Shown here piece by piece: positions 1,761 through 12,338 of a DNA stretch of 12,956 bases. The position numbers and the translations under genes are program-made. The DNA is from a virus (Duplodnaviria; Heunggongvirae; Uroviricota; Caudoviricetes). A model generated the notes under the pieces. It saw only the letters and a program-made list of their open reading frames with translations, did no database searches and was not told the origin of the DNA. Positions within the stretch are counted from its first letter, which is position 1, and each line of letters begins with the position of its first letter. The stretch lies in IMG/VR virus record IMGVR_UViG_2531839252_000007; one strand, given 5' to 3'.

Positions 1761-2312
1761 ATGAAAGATATTACAAACATCGCAGTGACTGGCGAAGATG
1801 GCGTGGTGACGTATGCCGACGGCAGTAAAGAGGAGTTCCAGTGCAGCGGAACCGTTGCGACCATCATTGCAAGTCTTGCAACGACACTCGAGAAAGAACG
1901 CAAAATGCGCATCGCCACCGGCGACCGCCTGCGCCGCATGTACACCCGCGACAGTGATATGATTTCCCGCGGTTTGAATGGCACGTCTGCTACTTCCACG
2001 GCACCGACAGCAATGAATGCTGAGTTCATGCGTCTGGTACGTGCCGTAGCGCCGAAATACGATTCAGCACTGCCCGACGCCGACCCGCGCATCGTTGCGC
2101 TCGATGTGCTGCGCTACGCCCCTGCTGAGGCGTTCAGCGCCGTACACCCTACCCCAATGTCAGAAATCCAGCTGGATCAGGCTATCGATATACTCGAGCA
2201 GGTTGGCGACTACATGAAAGCAAACAATATCGCTCCGAAAATAATTTCTACAGGAGACGCAATCCGCAGCATCAATGCTGACAACGCCACCTTCTGGGGC
2301 AAAAAACACTAA
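1761..2312 (+). CDS. Hypothetical protein (183 aa), first gene of cargo cassette 1
   Basis: Long ORF with a GAGG Shine-Dalgarno about 9 nt upstream of the ATG. No family recognisable from sequence. The antisense ORF 1664-2092 is judged spurious. Confidence 0.75.
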   Translation: MKDITNIAVTGEDGVVTYADGSKEEFQCSGTVATIIASLATTLEKERKMRIATGDRLRRMYTRDSDMISRGLNGTSATSTAPTAMNAEFMRLVRAVAPKYDSALPDADPRIVALDVLRYAPAEAFSAVHPTPMSEIQLDQAIDILEQVGDYMKANNIAPKIISTGDAIRSINADNATFWGKKH

Positions 2313-2318
2313 AGAGAT

Positions 2319-2513
2319 ATGAGCATGCCTATCTATGACCCGAAATTAGCCGCAGGCAACCCACAGCGCGCCCACCGCCCGATGCTGACCCGTCAGGATC
2401 TTGAAGCGGCAAAGGCACGCAATAACTTCGATCGCCAGAGTCGCAACCTGCAGCAACTCAACGAATCAAATGCACGGTTCTGGAGTGAACAGAATGAGAA
2501 AGCCAAACGTTAA
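2319..2513 (+). CDS. Small hypothetical protein (64 aa)
   Basis: Begins 6 nt after the upstream stop and is basic and Q/R-rich. Its 3' end overlaps the next start by 20 nt. Confidence 0.5.
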   Translation: MSMPIYDPKLAAGNPQRAHRPMLTRQDLEAAKARNNFDRQSRNLQQLNESNARFWSEQNEKAKR

Positions 2514-2670
2514 GCCGGTCCTGCTGTCCGCCGAGCAGATGCAGGCCATACGCAACATTCAGGAACGTGAACGCCAGCGCTCCAATCTCGGCGTCGCTCC
2601 CACCGTTCACCAGATTGCCCGCGGCCTCATGGCTAAGGCTCTGGCCTCACTGGCAAGCGAGGGCGTGTAA
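2494..2670 (+). CDS. Small hypothetical protein (58 aa), possible DNA-binding or adaptor protein
   Basis: The ATG at 2494 has a GGAG Shine-Dalgarno 8 nt upstream. The track ORF 2401-2670 is trimmed to this start because the longer version would overlap the previous gene by over 100 nt. Its stop overlaps the next start (TAATG). Confidence 0.55.
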   Translation: MRKPNVKPVLLSAEQMQAIRNIQERERQRSNLGVAPTVHQIARGLMAKALASLASEGV

Positions 2671-3341
2671 TGGGCGCCATTCACCAGATATATGAGCAGG
2701 AAATGTTCTATAACTGGATAGGCGATGGTAAACGATGTGTAGCATTCCACGAAGCGGGCCATGCAGTAGCCGCATGGCTTATTCGCTTAGATATGCAGGT
2801 TATCGCCATTATGGATGAATCCGGCTACGTTGCTGGCGAACATGTACATGAAGCCCAGTGTTTGGGCGTTGTTAAACACGGCATAATCCACAACCACGAT
2901 CTCAGGCGTTTGCGGGAGAGTAAATCTGGTGTAGTTGGGCACGATGGCAAAGTTATCCCTTTCATACGCTACTACGCGGAAGGTATAAAACGCGATGCAA
3001 CAAAGGCCGCTTTTGTAGCCCTCGCTGGACCAGTAAGCGAAGCCCTTTACGAAAATAACGAAATTTTCAATAAAAAGTATTCACTCCCTCACCGCTATGA
3101 CATGGCTAACGTAAATGACATGCTCGATTTAATATGTGCCACGGATAAGCAAATTAACAGGAAGTTAATGCTTTCTAAACTTGTTGAAAAGACCAAATTC
3201 CTCATGACTCAATACTGGCCGGAAGTAGGAAAAATAGCGCATTTGCTTGAGCGGGATAACATTGTTAATGGGCGCGATGTTAGCTCGCTAATCGGCCTCA
3301 ACGTCATTGACCGGGCAACGCCATTTTTGCTGGCGGAATAA
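2670..3341 (+). CDS. Standalone zinc metalloprotease-like protein with HEXXH motif (FtsH / M41 protease-domain-like)
   Basis: AFHEAGHAVAAW motif at residues 26-37 (HEAGH at nt 2748-2762) resembles the FtsH active-site helix. Downstream LAGPVSEALYEN resembles the FtsH LAEE region. No AAA+ ATPase or transmembrane segment is present. Start is coupled to the upstream stop. Confidence 0.75.
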   Translation: MGAIHQIYEQEMFYNWIGDGKRCVAFHEAGHAVAAWLIRLDMQVIAIMDESGYVAGEHVHEAQCLGVVKHGIIHNHDLRRLRESKSGVVGHDGKVIPFIRYYAEGIKRDATKAAFVALAGPVSEALYENNEIFNKKYSLPHRYDMANVNDMLDLICATDKQINRKLMLSKLVEKTKFLMTQYWPEVGKIAHLLERDNIVNGRDVSSLIGLNVIDRATPFLLAE

Positions 3342-3417
3342 CCCCTGCCCGAGCTCATTCGACGATTTATTCCTCGGCGGGTAAGCTATACCGGTCTACC
3401 TAACTGCGAGCACAAGG

Positions 3418-4476
3418 ATGATGAATAATTTAATCAATCGCATTGCTTTAACCTTTCTAGCGTTAGTACTCACAGGCTGCACTGCGGGGAAAATCGATCC
3501 CGCAAAAGCGTTAACACAAATGCATATCGTCAAAAGTGATGACTATAAGAAGCGCCCCGGCTGGCCTGCGTTGGTTCGTCTGGGTACTGACGATTGTGAG
3601 ACATACAAAAGTGGCGGCGGTAGCCTCTTTAAGTGGGACGGGCTGACGTGCAACGACAAAAGCATTATCCTGGCGGTTAATAGCAAACCACAGACCATTC
3701 CAGTGTTCTACGCTGCTTACCATGAATACGGGAGCTATGGGGTCGGGGAACTATCCAATTTTGACAATAGCACCCGAACAGGTGAGGAAGCCTCGAAGAT
3801 TCTGGTTAACCTGACCACAGTATTGAACAATCCGGCAAAAGTTGACGCTATCTATGCTGACTATGAAAAGGATCGTTGGAGCATGGGACTTGGTACAGTC
3901 AACGAAAGCGATTTTAAAAAGAGCCTGGCTACTTTTGCTCAGGAACGGGATAAGCTTGCCTCTGAATACCATAAATTACGTGACGCAAACCAAAAGAGAT
4001 ACCTAGCTGAACGGGACGAACGAATCAAACGTGAGAAAGAAGAGGCCATGGCCTCTGAAAAAACGATTGATCTCGTGTTATGGCAGAATCCAACAGTTGA
4101 GCAACAGATGGTTGTTGACGCTCTGCACACTATTAAATTCACAATAAGAAACGATGGCGTGGCATACGCTAACGGTCGCCGATTTATGTCAATTGCCGGG
4201 ATGGAATATCTCAGGAATAGCCTAGCTCTGAGTATGGAGTCATGTTCAGACGCTGGGGCATATGTTGGTGATACGGCATTAAATCGCGCATGTATTCAGG
4301 GCTTGGCGAGGAACATTGTTGAGTGGGGGAAAACCGCCAACGACCGTTCTATTTCAGACAGAGCATGGAACGCAGCCGCAATGGATGGCAGCATTAACTA
4401 CAACCCAATCAAGTATGAAATCCTGTTTTCACATTGGGCAGGAATGGCCCGTGTCTACTCTGCTCGTGGATATTAA
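3418..4476 (+). CDS. Lipoprotein (352 aa) with signal peptide, lipobox and charged coiled-coil-like segment
   Basis: The N-terminus MMNNLINRIALTFLALVLTGC has a hydrophobic core and an L-T-G-C lipobox. An AAGGA Shine-Dalgarno lies upstream. The middle region KLRDANQKRYLAERDERIKREKEEAMASEK is coiled-coil-like. Confidence 0.85.
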   Translation: MMNNLINRIALTFLALVLTGCTAGKIDPAKALTQMHIVKSDDYKKRPGWPALVRLGTDDCETYKSGGGSLFKWDGLTCNDKSIILAVNSKPQTIPVFYAAYHEYGSYGVGELSNFDNSTRTGEEASKILVNLTTVLNNPAKVDAIYADYEKDRWSMGLGTVNESDFKKSLATFAQERDKLASEYHKLRDANQKRYLAERDERIKREKEEAMASEKTIDLVLWQNPTVEQQMVVDALHTIKFTIRNDGVAYANGRRFMSIAGMEYLRNSLALSMESCSDAGAYVGDTALNRACIQGLARNIVEWGKTANDRSISDRAWNAAAMDGSINYNPIKYEILFSHWAGMARVYSARGY

Positions 4477-4526: not shown

Positions 4527-4552
4527 AGCCCGCATTTTAGCGGGCTTTCTTT
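4527..4552 (+). terminator. Rho-independent terminator after the lipoprotein gene
   Basis: Stem AGCCCGC(4527-4533), loop ATTTTA, stem GCGGGCT(4540-4546), followed by TTCTTT. Confidence 0.7.
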
Positions 4553-4569
4553 AGTTGAGCTTTGTACAA

Positions 4570-4618: not shown

Positions 4619-5731
4619 CTATTTAACTAAACGTAAATGTGACGGGCGTATCCCCGATTCCTGGGTACTCGATTTTCCACCATTGATAGCTTCCATAAAG
4701 AAGCTGTTACTGAAAGTAAGTGCACTCGCTTCGTCCGCAGGTAACCTCAACTGCTCGAGAATATCTCCCCTTTTAACGCCTTTGCTGCGTAGGGCTGAAA
4801 ACACTTTATCCAGCACTAATGACTTTTCACGTTCAGCAATCCCTTGAGGCTCACTCGTACGATATCCACGGCGAGCAAGTTCTATCGATAGCTGTCGATA
4901 ATGCCATTCGGTAGATAAACCGACATCAAACGTACGGCGCACCAAAGCCGCCAATGATACCCGCCAGTTCTTTTTTAACGAGATGAGTAGATCAAGCGAT
5001 GGCATTCTTGGCACTAAAGCTAAAATACTACGCTCAGGCATCAAAAAGGCCGATGCGAATCGATCTGCATCCTGCTCAGCTTGGCGGCCGTTGTTAGTTG
5101 AATGTTTATGGAGAACCAAGTGCCCCAGTTCATGAGCTGCATCGAATCGACTACGCTCCGGCGTTTTCATTGTATTCAAAAGCACAAAAGGTTTTTCATC
5201 CATCCAGAAAGAAAAGGCGTCTACTTCAATACAATTTTCCGCGAGAGAGAACACACGGACCCCATTAGCTTCAAGAAGATGGACCATGTTAGAGATGGAT
5301 AATTCACCTATCCCCCAACTTTCTCTAACCACGCGAGCAGCTCGCTCAGGCTCAGAATAACCATCGAAACTACAATCAGGTACATTAGGTTTAGGAAGCT
5401 TAAACTGCCCGTCAATCCAAGCTGATAGCTCTTGCGCGAGCTTTCCGGCTCCGAGTGCTGAGTCCCTTTTCTGTGCCGTCAACTTTGTCATTGCACGGAA
5501 ACTAACGGCTTCTGGCGACAGAGTAGGTACATCCCTGTCGAGGAAGAACTCAATCGGATAGCCCAGAACAGCAGAAATCCGTTCCATGGTATCGCTGGCT
5601 ATGGCATCAAAAATCCCTGCTTTCTCGTAATTCGAAATCGTCTTACTAGTCAATTCTGTAGCTTCAGCTAAAGCTCTTTGTGTCAGGCCTCTCCGTTCTC
5701 TGGCTATACGTAAACGCTCTGAATTAAACAT
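4619..5731 (-). CDS. XRE-family HTH fused to ImmA/IrrE-type (M78, COG2856-like) zinc metallopeptidase, with C-terminal extension of about 130 aa
   Basis: N-terminal HTH LTQRALAEATELTSKTISNYEKAG. HELGH at residues 200-204 (nt 5120-5134, verified by reverse-complement translation). Followed by EQDADRFASAFLMP, the characteristic ImmA/IrrE E-x-x-A-x-x-F-A-x-x-x-L-x-P signature. Starts 9 nt after the upstream gene stop. Confidence 0.9.
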   Translation of the reverse strand: MFNSERLRIARERRGLTQRALAEATELTSKTISNYEKAGIFDAIASDTMERISAVLGYPIEFFLDRDVPTLSPEAVSFRAMTKLTAQKRDSALGAGKLAQELSAWIDGQFKLPKPNVPDCSFDGYSEPERAARVVRESWGIGELSISNMVHLLEANGVRVFSLAENCIEVDAFSFWMDEKPFVLLNTMKTPERSRFDAAHELGHLVLHKHSTNNGRQAEQDADRFASAFLMPERSILALVPRMPSLDLLISLKKNWRVSLAALVRRTFDVGLSTEWHYRQLSIELARRGYRTSEPQGIAEREKSLVLDKVFSALRSKGVKRGDILEQLRLPADEASALTFSNSFFMEAINGGKSSTQESGIRPSHLRLVK

Positions 5732-5740
5732 GGTGCATAT

Positions 5741-6460
5741 TTAGCCTGTTTTTAAAATGTCGAGATCGATATCCGGTGTAAACTGCGGTACATCACCGTT
5801 CTGAACAATAGGGTCAGGTTGATGAGGAGCAATAATTAAACGTGTGGAGAAGGCATTAACTACATTCTTGTTATTGTATGAAATCGGGCGTGAAAGCTCA
5901 GCTCGGATCCCCACGCGCTCATCCCCGTCAATTTCATAAAAATCGTAAAGTAAAAACCATAAGTCCAGTCCGATTTTATTCGGTAGCAGTGGTATAACAT
6001 CACCTTCCGGCATGTCTAAATCCAGCTTAAGCTGGCTATCATCCAGGATAAGCTCACCCTGACCCGGGGTGTTATTATGGATTAACCCCATCAGCTCACA
6101 AGTAAAATCACCTTTCTTCATGCGAGACTCAGGAAATCCATGAACCAAACCTGTCTGATCACACCCCCGGCAGAGGTAAAGGGCAACTTTATCACTTACA
6201 GTCAGTTCAACATTTCGCAGGGACAGACGTTTGTAGCCTTTCGGAGCCAGAATGTCGCGGGCTGCACTCACCCCCTCACCATAGAAATATTGCCCACGTG
6301 AGGTCTTGGGGTGATTCTGAGTCGTCGAATAACGACCAGACAAGCCACGCTCAAGAATACGCCTGAGATCACTTTGGCTCAGATTCAGGGACTGCAGGTA
6401 GGATTCAACATCGTCAGGATCTGCCAAAACAATGGTTTTTGCGAGATTATGAGAGTACAT
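5741..6460 (-). CDS. Hypothetical protein (239 aa), first gene of minus-strand cargo operon
   Basis: ATG at 6458-6460 with an AAGAGG Shine-Dalgarno 8 nt upstream. No recognisable family. Co-oriented with, and 9 nt upstream of, the HTH-peptidase gene. Confidence 0.8.
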   Translation of the reverse strand: MYSHNLAKTIVLADPDDVESYLQSLNLSQSDLRRILERGLSGRYSTTQNHPKTSRGQYFYGEGVSAARDILAPKGYKRLSLRNVELTVSDKVALYLCRGCDQTGLVHGFPESRMKKGDFTCELMGLIHNNTPGQGELILDDSQLKLDLDMPEGDVIPLLPNKIGLDLWFLLYDFYEIDGDERVGIRAELSRPISYNNKNVVNAFSTRLIIAPHQPDPIVQNGDVPQFTPDIDLDILKTG

Positions 6461-6666: not shown

Positions 6667-7485
6667 ATGAGTGGTTTTGTTTTTCCTTTCGAGTTTCAAC
6701 CAGTGCCAGAGGCATTGGCAATCCTGAACGACATGGATATTGCTCCCTTTGAAATAACCGAAAAACACCTAGAAAGCTGGTGGGCGGAGGGGAAAATTCA
6801 ACTGTGCTTTAACTGGGGTAGATTCTGGAAAGCTGGCTTAGCCGACGAACTGGCAAAAACAGAAGGCTACGCAGAATTAGGGGCGAAAGAAAAGATCACT
6901 GCGCTCAATGCTGTATCCGCTTCCCCCGAGGCTAACATCAGTCTTGTCGTGCCATCTTACAGCGATTTAAGTTTTATCTGGCGCGGGCATAGCGACGATC
7001 CACTCCCCTGTATCGAGGCCAAACCCTACGGGCTTGATCAACCTTTTGTTATCAAACGCGTTCCTCACACCTGCGAGGACTATTGCGATTACGGTACGCA
7101 GCATTGGGAAAAACTTTACCATTCGCTGCACATTTCGAGTATGGTGCTGCCGCGTGCTGAAGCTGAAAAAATTTATTATCTCTGCAACCCTACAGCTATT
7201 CCAGGCATGGACGAAAAGACGGCATCTGCAGTATCTGCGAAAACGGTTAACTATCTGGCCACTGCTTTAAAAGCTTTTATTCACATCCATTACGGGGCTG
7301 ATGTGGCGGACAACCTGCGCAAACATCTTGAGGATCCCACCAGTGATATACGGAAAGACTTTGCGAATAAAGGGATCAAAGCGCCAGGTGGAAAAGCGCT
7401 GGCCAGCCATCTGAAAAATATTCTGATTGAAGTTTTACCCGCGCTCGACAACGTCGATGTGGAGAGTGACGCTGGTAATACATAA
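6667..7485 (+). CDS. Hypothetical protein (272 aa), divergent from the minus-strand operon
   Basis: Coding-like ORF with AAGG about 9 nt upstream of the ATG. Contains a Cys/His-rich patch HTCEDYCDYGTQHWEKLYHSLH. No recognisable family. Confidence 0.7.
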   Translation: MSGFVFPFEFQPVPEALAILNDMDIAPFEITEKHLESWWAEGKIQLCFNWGRFWKAGLADELAKTEGYAELGAKEKITALNAVSASPEANISLVVPSYSDLSFIWRGHSDDPLPCIEAKPYGLDQPFVIKRVPHTCEDYCDYGTQHWEKLYHSLHISSMVLPRAEAEKIYYLCNPTAIPGMDEKTASAVSAKTVNYLATALKAFIHIHYGADVADNLRKHLEDPTSDIRKDFANKGIKAPGGKALASHLKNILIEVLPALDNVDVESDAGNT

Positions 7486-7848: not shown

Positions 7849-8043
7849 TCAGGCTTTCGGCTCAATACCCAGCCGCTGGAGTTCTTTGCGCCCCAAGGTT
7901 TTCATCCAATTAGCTAAACTCATACCTGCATCTCGTGCGGCGGCCTCGAATTGCTCTTTCAATTCTGGGGCGATCCTCACTTGGAAAGCTGGTGCCTTTC
8001 CCCTGCCTTTGGGCTGTTTATCACGCTGTATTACTGTTGACAT
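7849..8043 (-). CDS. Ribbon-helix-helix (CopG/Arc-like) small DNA-binding protein, likely repressor
   Basis: 64-aa product from M18 of the track ORF; the upstream AGG gives a better ribosome-binding site than the 8094 start. FQVRIAPELKEQFEAAARDAGMSLANWMKTLGRKEL fits a strand-helix-helix pattern. Divergent from the replication operon. Confidence 0.6.
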   Translation of the reverse strand: MSTVIQRDKQPKGRGKAPAFQVRIAPELKEQFEAAARDAGMSLANWMKTLGRKELQRLGIEPKA

Positions 8044-8177: not shown

Positions 8178-8378
8178 ATGGCTAAGCCGCAGTGTACCCA
8201 AACTCACCCCAAATATCAGTATCGTTTTATGGCGCTCGATCGCGCTGACCGCCAGGCAAAACCCTGCAAAATCATTGTTGAGGCCACCAGCGAGCACGAA
8301 GCGCGTAAAGTGCTGGCTCCTCACTACATCCTGTCACTGTCCGCCGTTTTGCCAGTTCAGGAGGTGAGCCATGTTTAA
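8178..8378 (+). CDS. Small hypothetical protein (66 aa), first gene of replication-module operon
   Basis: GGAGA Shine-Dalgarno 9 nt upstream. The operon is tightly packed. Confidence 0.65.
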   Translation: MAKPQCTQTHPKYQYRFMALDRADRQAKPCKIIVEATSEHEARKVLAPHYILSLSAVLPVQEVSHV

Positions 8379-11679: not shown

Positions 11680-11700
11680 CTTGTAAAAAATCACCAAGAA

Positions 11701-11722
11701 CCCCGTAAATCGGGGCTTTTGT
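11701..11722 (+). terminator. Rho-independent terminator after the primase/helicase gene
   Basis: CCCCG stem, TAAAT loop, CGGGG stem, then CTTTTGT, starting 22 nt after the stop. Confidence 0.7.
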
Positions 11723-11741
11723 CTATTTATTAGTCTGAAAG

Positions 11742-11852
11742 GGTGAACAGGTGCGCATACCTTAACAAAGCTGTTCACTCTAATAATTTTCTTTAATATC
11801 AGTACACTACCCGCAATAAGTGAACAGATGGACGGGGTGAACACTTCACACC
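11742..11852. repeat. Second iteron cluster (TGTTCACC family); putative crr-like cis replication region
   Basis: GGTGAACA at 11742-11749 and 11836-11843 (perfect reverse complements of TGTTCACC). TGTTCACT at 11772-11779 and AGTGAACA at 11819-11826 (one mismatch each). Degenerate CTTCACACC at 11844-11852. Confidence 0.6.
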
Positions 11853-12338
11853 TATAGCGCGAAATATTTTAATATTTGCAGTTGAATTGCAATCCTTGAA
11901 AACAGAAACGCGTAGCAAAACGTAGAGTGCTGAAAAAATTTTGTTGGGGAGCAGTTCAAACTGCATGAGCAATTTTCAAGCACTCCTCTTTGTCTTGTAC
12001 CCAAGACTGTACCCAATAGAAAAAATAGAAAATAAAAACTCAGCAATAGCAGCGATTGGTGCCACTACTCAACATTCAGATTCATAAGCGACATATCTCC
12101 GTAGGCCGTTGTTAATTACAGCGGCGCTACGCATATAGTTTCGTCCTCATATTTATTTACTCCATACTTTTTCTAATGCATTTTACTTATCACAAAATCA
12201 GAAAAATGCATTCTTACTACAGAAAATAGCAATTTCACATAACTACAAATTATCAATCTATTCTCTCCTTAAAAAATCTCAATCGTGACAATGCGCACAA
12301 ATCGCTACCCTTCCAGACAGATTTTTAGGGAGAGAACC

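Follow-up and report, generated by a model that had tools for sequence, protein, structure and literature searches.

An accessory gene for a predicted lipoprotein common to satellite-like islands and temperate myophages, and its possible role in superinfection exclusion

Lipoproteins that block phage entry are already known from mobile elements, as a few small and unrelated families. The stretch of DNA analysed here (12,956 nucleotides, hereafter the window) represents a ~12-kb island between yicC and yicG of Escherichia coli and carries a gene for a predicted lipoprotein, which a sequence-only reading had taken for cargo and for a possible superinfection-exclusion or envelope factor. The locus raises the question of whether this gene encodes another entry-blocking protein, or whether it serves the host, the growth of the mobile element or a neighbouring gene instead.

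Reading frame, export signal and domain architecture

The coding sequence occupies positions 3418..4476 on the plus strand, starts with ATG and encodes 352 amino acids, a frame supported by homologues and called identically by RefSeq (WP_001334457.1, 'hypothetical protein', E. coli O55:H7 DEC5B). Clustering at 90% identity divides the family into 40 clusters, each named 'hypothetical', and at 50% identity it has 47 representatives in a set of 1.84 billion sequences. With 41 invariant columns besides, the open reading frame is judged from its conservation to be a real gene, with chance excluded. An AAGG at 3414-3417 lies immediately 5′ of the ATG at 3418; it is the only Shine-Dalgarno-like element, abutting this first ATG and standing 3 nt from a further in-frame ATG at 3421. 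Translation may really begin at 3421, since the proteins of one homologue cluster (P0004) lack the first residue.

The N-terminus (MMNNLINR-IALTFLALVL-TG followed by the cysteine) combines a positively charged n-region, a hydrophobic core and an L-T-G-C lipobox (L18-T19-G20-C21, nt 3469-3480), with Thr at position +2, and is predicted to form a type II signal peptide of residues 1-20 preceding a lipidated Cys21 (3418..3480, plus strand). Charged n-region, h-region, lipobox and early cysteine all agree with the definition applied to lipoproteins ([LVI][ASTVI][GAS]-C, with the cysteine within roughly the first 15-35 residues), and the sequence passed a PROSITE-style regular expression. The signal peptide and lipobox pointed out in the sequence-only reading are therefore present, and Cys21 is invariant among 31 aligned homologues of 38-91% identity, every one of which has a lipobox-like tetrapeptide ending there; a [LVIF][ASTGV][GAS]C box is found at the equivalent position in almost every long-form relative. 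Given that residue +2 is Thr rather than Asp, the '+2 rule' predicts Lol-dependent sorting to the periplasmic face of the outer membrane, and Asp at +2 was absent from every homologue checked by alignment and regular expression. Lipidation at Cys21 and outer-membrane sorting of the protein are thus expected from the sequence. The mature product would have 332 amino acids, a mass of ~37 kDa and a computed pI of ~7.1.

An AlphaFold2 model built with the family alignment reached a mean pLDDT of 83.8 for the full lipoprotein and laid it out as an all-helical N-terminal domain, a long helix and an alpha/beta C-terminal domain, all three encoded on the plus strand. The N-terminal domain (about residues 36-175, 3523..3942) was modelled with pLDDT values mostly of 86-97 and contains invariant columns, among them the cysteine pair C60/C78, together with the motifs KKRPGW and YAAYHEYG; it is joined to a different C-terminus in a few relatives (P0048, P0050 and L012). 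The C-terminal domain (residues 213-352, 4054..4473), which surpasses the other modules of the family in both conservation and spread, reached a pLDDT of 95.0 and a pTM of 0.88 when modelled alone from a diverse alignment, and features the invariant pair C276/C292 and the motifs ISDxAW and F-x-HWAGMARVY, the two cysteines being the sole invariant columns across 46 diverse members. The presence of two invariant cysteine pairs, one in each predicted domain, together with the signal peptide, suggests that both domains are stapled by disulfides and that the protein resides in the periplasm.

The segment between these domains had been read as a coiled coil. AlphaFold2 does predict one continuous helix over residues 177-212 (3946..4053), but the surrounding segment 173-215 consists to 53% of D, E, K and R, offers hydrophobic residues at few heptad positions, and is poorly conserved with insertions and deletions, a 374-aa subfamily carrying a 6-residue insertion in the helix. 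The 36-residue charged helix, predicted to span ~5 nm, is therefore probably a rigid spacer that links the two domains rather than a proven coiled coil.

Scans of the lipoprotein against Pfam, PHROGs, PADLOC and NCBIfam returned nothing meaningful, the sole Pfam return at an E-value of 0.1 being a sub-threshold coiled-coil match, and a sequence profile search of the PDB gave coiled-coil noise only. None of these searches revealed homology to a housekeeping lipoprotein, the finding that the sequence-only reading had named as speaking against it. The family is thus an unnamed one of no known fold, whose fold is confidently predicted and has no solved match. Literature searches with the RefSeq accession of the lipoprotein and for the yicC/dinD island likewise found nothing.

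The window island, transcription of the gene and close relatives

The island opens with a P4-type integrase gene (1-1260), followed on the plus strand by a conserved four-gene cassette (1761-3341; 183, 62, 58 and 223 aa), the last gene of which encodes a stand-alone FtsH/M41-like HEAGH peptidase. No signal peptide was seen in the N-terminus of this peptidase, nor did Pfam match a membrane domain, and it is presumably cytoplasmic as judged from its sequence. Beyond the lipoprotein gene, on the minus strand, lies a convergent Rosmer anti-phage defence pair recognised by PADLOC (4619-6460), consisting of RmrA (4619-5731, 370 aa, a helix-turn-helix plus M78/IrrE peptidase, E 1e-149) and RmrT (5741-6460, 239 aa, E 1e-52). 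It is followed by a 272-aa open reading frame in a variable region (6667-7485, plus strand), which matched nothing in Pfam, PHROGs, PADLOC or NCBIfam and is replaced by a different 226-aa gene in strain E2348/69. Beyond it the window encodes AlpA, an Icd-like protein, several small proteins and a P4-family primase. The gene for the Icd-like host cell-division inhibitor (8178-8378, plus strand) lies upstream of the primase operon, beside a small divergent gene (7849-8043, minus strand) whose positional counterpart in other strains is annotated as YlcI/YnfO family, a layout typical of P4-like satellites. Relative to locus L001 (14680-16431, set against window positions 11680-12284), ~1.1 kb including dinD is missing from the window; in DEC5B and near-identical strains this segment lies between the primase gene and yicG, the match to the window falling into two pieces.

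The upstream HEAGH reading frame ends at 3341, leaving the 76-nt gap to the lipoprotein gene (3342..3417, plus strand) that had been described before. As far as ~3405-3410, this leader is conserved in a second lipoprotein-bearing island (L021) and also in islands from which the lipoprotein is missing (L030), and no promoter-like site was found within it. Because a backbone common to lipoprotein-less islands reaches to ~10 nt before the ATG, and given this lack of promoter-like sites in the gap, read-through from the upstream cassette appears more likely than an independent promoter, which tips the earlier choice between co-transcription and independent expression towards the former. Downstream, an intrinsic-terminator-like hairpin with a T-rich tail (4527..4556, plus strand) was found: AGCCCGC-ATTTTA-GCGGGCT at 4527-4546, forming a 7-bp stem with six G-C pairs and a 6-nt loop, followed by TTCTTTAGTT. 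The centroid fold of the region, with an energy of about −12 kcal/mol, retains this hairpin and adds a single 3-bp stem. The gene thus does appear to have a terminator of its own, which is predicted to be decent rather than exceptional and falls short of the strong one first proposed.

In strain E2348/69 and others (AUSMDU00014361 and 2013C-3342) the island has a backbone 99% identical to that of the window yet no lipoprotein gene, and a different RmrA-like pair (27% identity in E2348/69) occupies this position. The occurrence of one island with and without the gene places the latter in a variable cargo region. The gene is present in 15 of 5,426 complete E. coli genomes, carriers of the window-type allele among the complete genomes including human and bovine isolates and the serotypes O55:H7 and O45:H2, and every relative whose context was examined lay on a satellite-like island or in a prophage. 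The designation as cargo therefore holds, and a housekeeping lipoprotein was ruled out by this rarity and by the restriction to mobile elements. Of the E. coli genomes, 53 contain the segment with the peptidase gene and 20 of these retain 80% or more of the whole cassette, which is located either after the primase gene or, as in the window, after the integrase gene. A cross-count placed the lipoprotein gene immediately downstream of the peptidase gene in ~12 of these 53 genomes, and the rest appear to lack it there.

Close homologues (55-90% identity) reside on islands with integrase, AlpA and primase genes. A second E. coli island at tRNA-Ile has the HEAGH gene upstream of the lipoprotein gene with a gap of 79 nt; in Yersinia, where the island is also located at yicC, the lipoprotein gene begins 1 nt after a homologous HEAGH gene, and in Dickeya a 57-nt gap separates the two. 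The Phytobacter homologue lies downstream of a P4-type primase gene, and in Kosakonia a nearby smpB is the sole hint of an island. In Salmonella, Klebsiella and E. coli ECONIH5, the lipoprotein-bearing islands are inserted within the head module of a prophage, with the lipoprotein gene near the integrase gene and 6-7 kb from the peptidase gene; in Salmonella and ECONIH5 it adjoins a TumE-type toxin-antitoxin pair. These in-prophage islands (L004, 7462-19569, Salmonella; L005, 7687-17907, Klebsiella; L022, 6082-17644, ECONIH5) look like satellites integrated into their helper prophage. They adjoin genes for DUF2213/Pa193_gp24, cement and major capsid proteins, the Klebsiella capsid gene looking truncated, and at least L004 and L022 have a DUF2280 (small-terminase-like) gene of their own.

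The window protein found nothing in tblastn against 72,556 plasmids, and together with the Klebsiella relative P0060 it found no family member in 50,697 phage records, which indicates that even sequenced phages seldom carry such a gene. A scan of genome contigs yielded seven loci, too few for co-occurrence statistics.

Remote relatives in the tail modules of temperate myophages

Remote homologues, at ~23-40% identity or detectable at profile level only, were located in the tail module of ZF40/SEN34/E217-like temperate myophages, a lineage defined here by shared Pfam families (cement, major capsid, E217_gp27/gp31/gp41, Pam3_gp18, Dit-like and apex-domain spike). In Klebsiella and Serratia prophages the relative sits between the genes for the baseplate hub and the spike, its start overlapping the hub gene or following it by 4 nt. 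The same hub-spike slot is occupied in Photorhabdus, together with a YafO toxin gene, while in Xenorhabdus a tail-module relative is accompanied by RelB/ParE and in Enterobacter a form with only the N-terminal domain lies directly 3′ of the hub gene. Short forms from Acinetobacter, consisting of a type I signal peptide, the C-terminal domain and the charged helix, occupy a slot downstream of the tape-measure gene, which they follow immediately in two of three loci, one of them next to a HicA-like pair.

The family also has a member in a cultured phage. Gp56 of Pectobacterium phage ZF40, a 324-aa lipoprotein with an LFGC lipobox encoded between the tail chaperone and tape-measure genes, scored 60.8 bits against the family profile and is probably identical to H9C1A6 (324 aa), the single significant match in BFVD. 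The papers on ZF40 that were searched do not discuss gp56, and tblastn with the window proteins found no homologue of the peptidase cassette in this phage.

In phages SEN34 and Klebsiella phage ST405-OXA48phi1.2, unrelated small genes occupy the hub-spike slot, which marks these positions as accessory slots and not structural ones. The lipoprotein gene, which is present in some and absent from other collinear genomes and is replaced in its slot by unrelated genes elsewhere, is thus an accessory ('moron'-type) gene common to ZF40/SEN34/E217-like myophages and satellite-like islands, some of these islands being inserted in prophages of the same lineage. In the associated phages, the tape measure includes an SLT or lysozyme domain. 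More widely, the tape-measure/hub/spike stretch of this lineage forms a recurrent accessory hotspot, which in different phages holds YafO, RelB/ParE, a HicA-like pair or unrelated small genes (L006, 10001-13734; L020, 8001-9708; L026, 8001-9510; L023, 5026-6071; L024, 5179-5850). A virion structural protein was rejected as an identity for the lipoprotein, every member having a Sec signal and close phage relatives lacking the gene.

Possible functions of the lipoprotein

For the functional step we infer, tentatively, that the best explanation is an outer-membrane lipoprotein that blocks phage entry, that is, superinfection exclusion. The gene would be transcribed by read-through from the upstream cassette, with transcription ending at its own terminator; the product would be exported by Sec, receive its lipid at Cys21 and be delivered by Lol to the outer membrane, facing the periplasm. 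There it may interfere with a receptor or, more probably, with genome delivery through the periplasm by tails of the same lineage. Candidate targets are the tape measure, hub or spike of the incoming phage, and the SLT and lysozyme domains of the associated tape measures offer one concrete candidate among these.

Entry exclusion is plausible and consistent with the data, and it is somewhat strengthened because relatives recur in tail modules near tape-measure, hub and spike genes and near toxin-antitoxin pairs. Also in its favour, the exported cargo lipoprotein lies beside a Rosmer pair in the window and beside a TumE-type pair in Salmonella and E. coli. By contrast, at 37 kDa the protein is 4-6 times the size of Llp or Cor, and several relatives are tightly embedded in late tail operons, which argues for lytic rather than lysogen expression. 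In addition, a satellite would restrict its own mobilisation by shutting out phages of its helper lineage.

Comparison with known exclusion lipoproteins bears on this reading in both directions. Genes for receptor-blocking lipoproteins adjoin tail or receptor-binding genes: llp of T5 adjoins a receptor-binding protein gene, as relatives of the window gene adjoin tail-tip genes, whereas the window gene itself lies in the cargo region of a satellite-like island and not among such genes. Llp is likewise a phage-encoded outer-membrane lipoprotein, described as blocking the FhuA receptor and excluding incoming phage (PMC9586334); the window protein is predicted to sit in this membrane as well, and the same outcome is proposed for it. 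The mature Llp has ~60 aa and is carried by a phage, whereas the window protein, on its satellite-like island, has 332 aa in two domains and shows no similarity to Llp in sequence or fold. Cor of phi80/N15/HK022/T1-like phages is an outer-membrane lipoprotein encoded as a moron among late tail genes and thought to inactivate the receptor (PMC7556043). The window protein is non-homologous to Cor and much larger, departing from the small single-domain mature form (~60-80 aa) typical of Llp and Cor, and Cor comes from siphophages whereas the lineage of the window family consists of contractile-tailed ZF40/SEN34/E217-like phages. The closest analogue of the favoured mechanism, a block of genome delivery, is Ltp of Streptococcus phage TP-J34, which targets the tape measure protein and prevents the injection of DNA. 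The repeat domains of Ltp form a Pfam family, and they were not found in the window lipoprotein by a Pfam scan at an E-value of 0.1. Ltp is described as a multi-domain, helical, surface-anchored lipoprotein of a superinfection-exclusion family (PMC3952083). Family libraries and fold comparison gave no homology of the lipoprotein to Llp, Cor, Ltp, TraT or Bor, and Pfam, PHROGs, PADLOC and NCBIfam gave none to a known exclusion protein or defence model; with neither sequence nor fold in common, a several-fold larger size and a two-domain architecture, the protein does not belong to the families of Llp, Cor or Ltp.

A bolder form of the entry-exclusion reading, which we consider unlikely, is that the lipoproteins make up a new family of periplasmic exclusion factors with a novel fold, which ZF40/SEN34/E217-like myophages exchange with the satellites that parasitise them. 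From its anchor in the outer membrane, the conserved C-terminal domain on its rigid helix would bind and neutralise tail-tip machinery of incoming phages of this lineage, such as a muralytic tape measure, hub or spike, so that genome delivery would be stopped after adsorption. The family keeps its link to one lineage's tail module across Enterobacterales and Acinetobacter and also rides satellite-like islands adjoining defence systems. Were the protein an exclusion factor, it would represent a new family with a likely new periplasmic target and an example of a gene common to helper phages and their satellites. The cultured phage member ZF40 gp56 makes the exclusion idea directly testable, and a different function would still annotate an orphan family of exported mobile-element proteins.

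Among the other explanations, a lysogenic-conversion envelope factor would benefit the host independently of phages, for instance by making it resistant to serum or stress, by promoting adhesion or by remodelling the envelope. Lipoproteins of this kind include Bor, Iss and TraT, and an exported lipoprotein, predicted to reach the outer membrane, that travels as cargo on mobile elements and whose allele occurs in human and bovine isolates, O55:H7 and O45:H2 included, could belong with them. However, it resembles neither Bor, Iss and TraT nor any Pfam or NCBIfam family, and its relatives are strictly linked to tail modules across the insect-associated Photorhabdus and Xenorhabdus, the plant pathogen Pectobacterium, and Acinetobacter; such linkage to the tail module of one lineage in very different hosts argues for a phage-centred rather than a niche-specific host function, and we regard an envelope factor as rather improbable. 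It is also quite doubtful that the lipoprotein helps the lytic growth of the phage or satellite, by masking receptors on lysing cells, which would spare the progeny from being wasted, or by aiding envelope disruption or release. A gene that overlaps or abuts the hub gene in Klebsiella and Serratia, belongs to a late tail operon in Acinetobacter and, in the window, apparently depends on transcription entering from the cassette, no separate promoter having been found, would fit such a helper, but these phages have complete lysis cassettes elsewhere, spanin features are missing, close relatives (SEN34 and ST405-OXA48phi1.2) dispense with the gene, and receptor masking overlaps mechanistically with entry exclusion itself.

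That the lipoprotein forms one satellite module with the upstream M41-like peptidase, be it as its functional partner, its substrate or its regulator, seems very unlikely. The lipoprotein gene does lie directly downstream of a homologous HEAGH gene in four contexts (the two E. coli islands, with 76 and 79 nt, Yersinia with 1 nt and Dickeya with 57 nt), yet the peptidase is presumably cytoplasmic and the lipoprotein exported, only ~12 of the 53 E. coli peptidase genomes have the lipoprotein directly downstream, 6-7 kb separate the genes in Salmonella, Klebsiella and ECONIH5, and the prophage relatives have no such peptidase nearby. An obligate partnership was rejected outright on the different compartments and the ~12 of 53 count. 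Equally hard to credit is that the lipoprotein serves as an orphan immunity factor and protects against muralytic enzymes or toxins acting in the periplasm (type VI effectors, bacteriocins or tailocin lysins, for instance), the structural hints towards this remaining at noise level.

Two further identities were rejected. The lipoprotein shares its variable island region with RmrT and RmrA, but Rosmer is a cytoplasmic system of the toxin-antitoxin type whereas the lipoprotein is a single exported protein that matched no PADLOC model, and a role as a Rosmer component was discarded because homologues occur without Rosmer and an RmrA-like pair occurs without the lipoprotein. Spanins were considered as well. 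The o-spanins are small, and the lipoprotein is too large for one; no lysis gene or spanin partner gene was found near it in the window, and no C-terminal hydrophobic segment was seen that could form the membrane helix of a u-spanin. In the two-component arrangement an o-spanin is paired with an i-spanin (PMC6139136), and the associated phages have separate lysis cassettes, ZF40 being listed with spanins of its own (PMC6139136).
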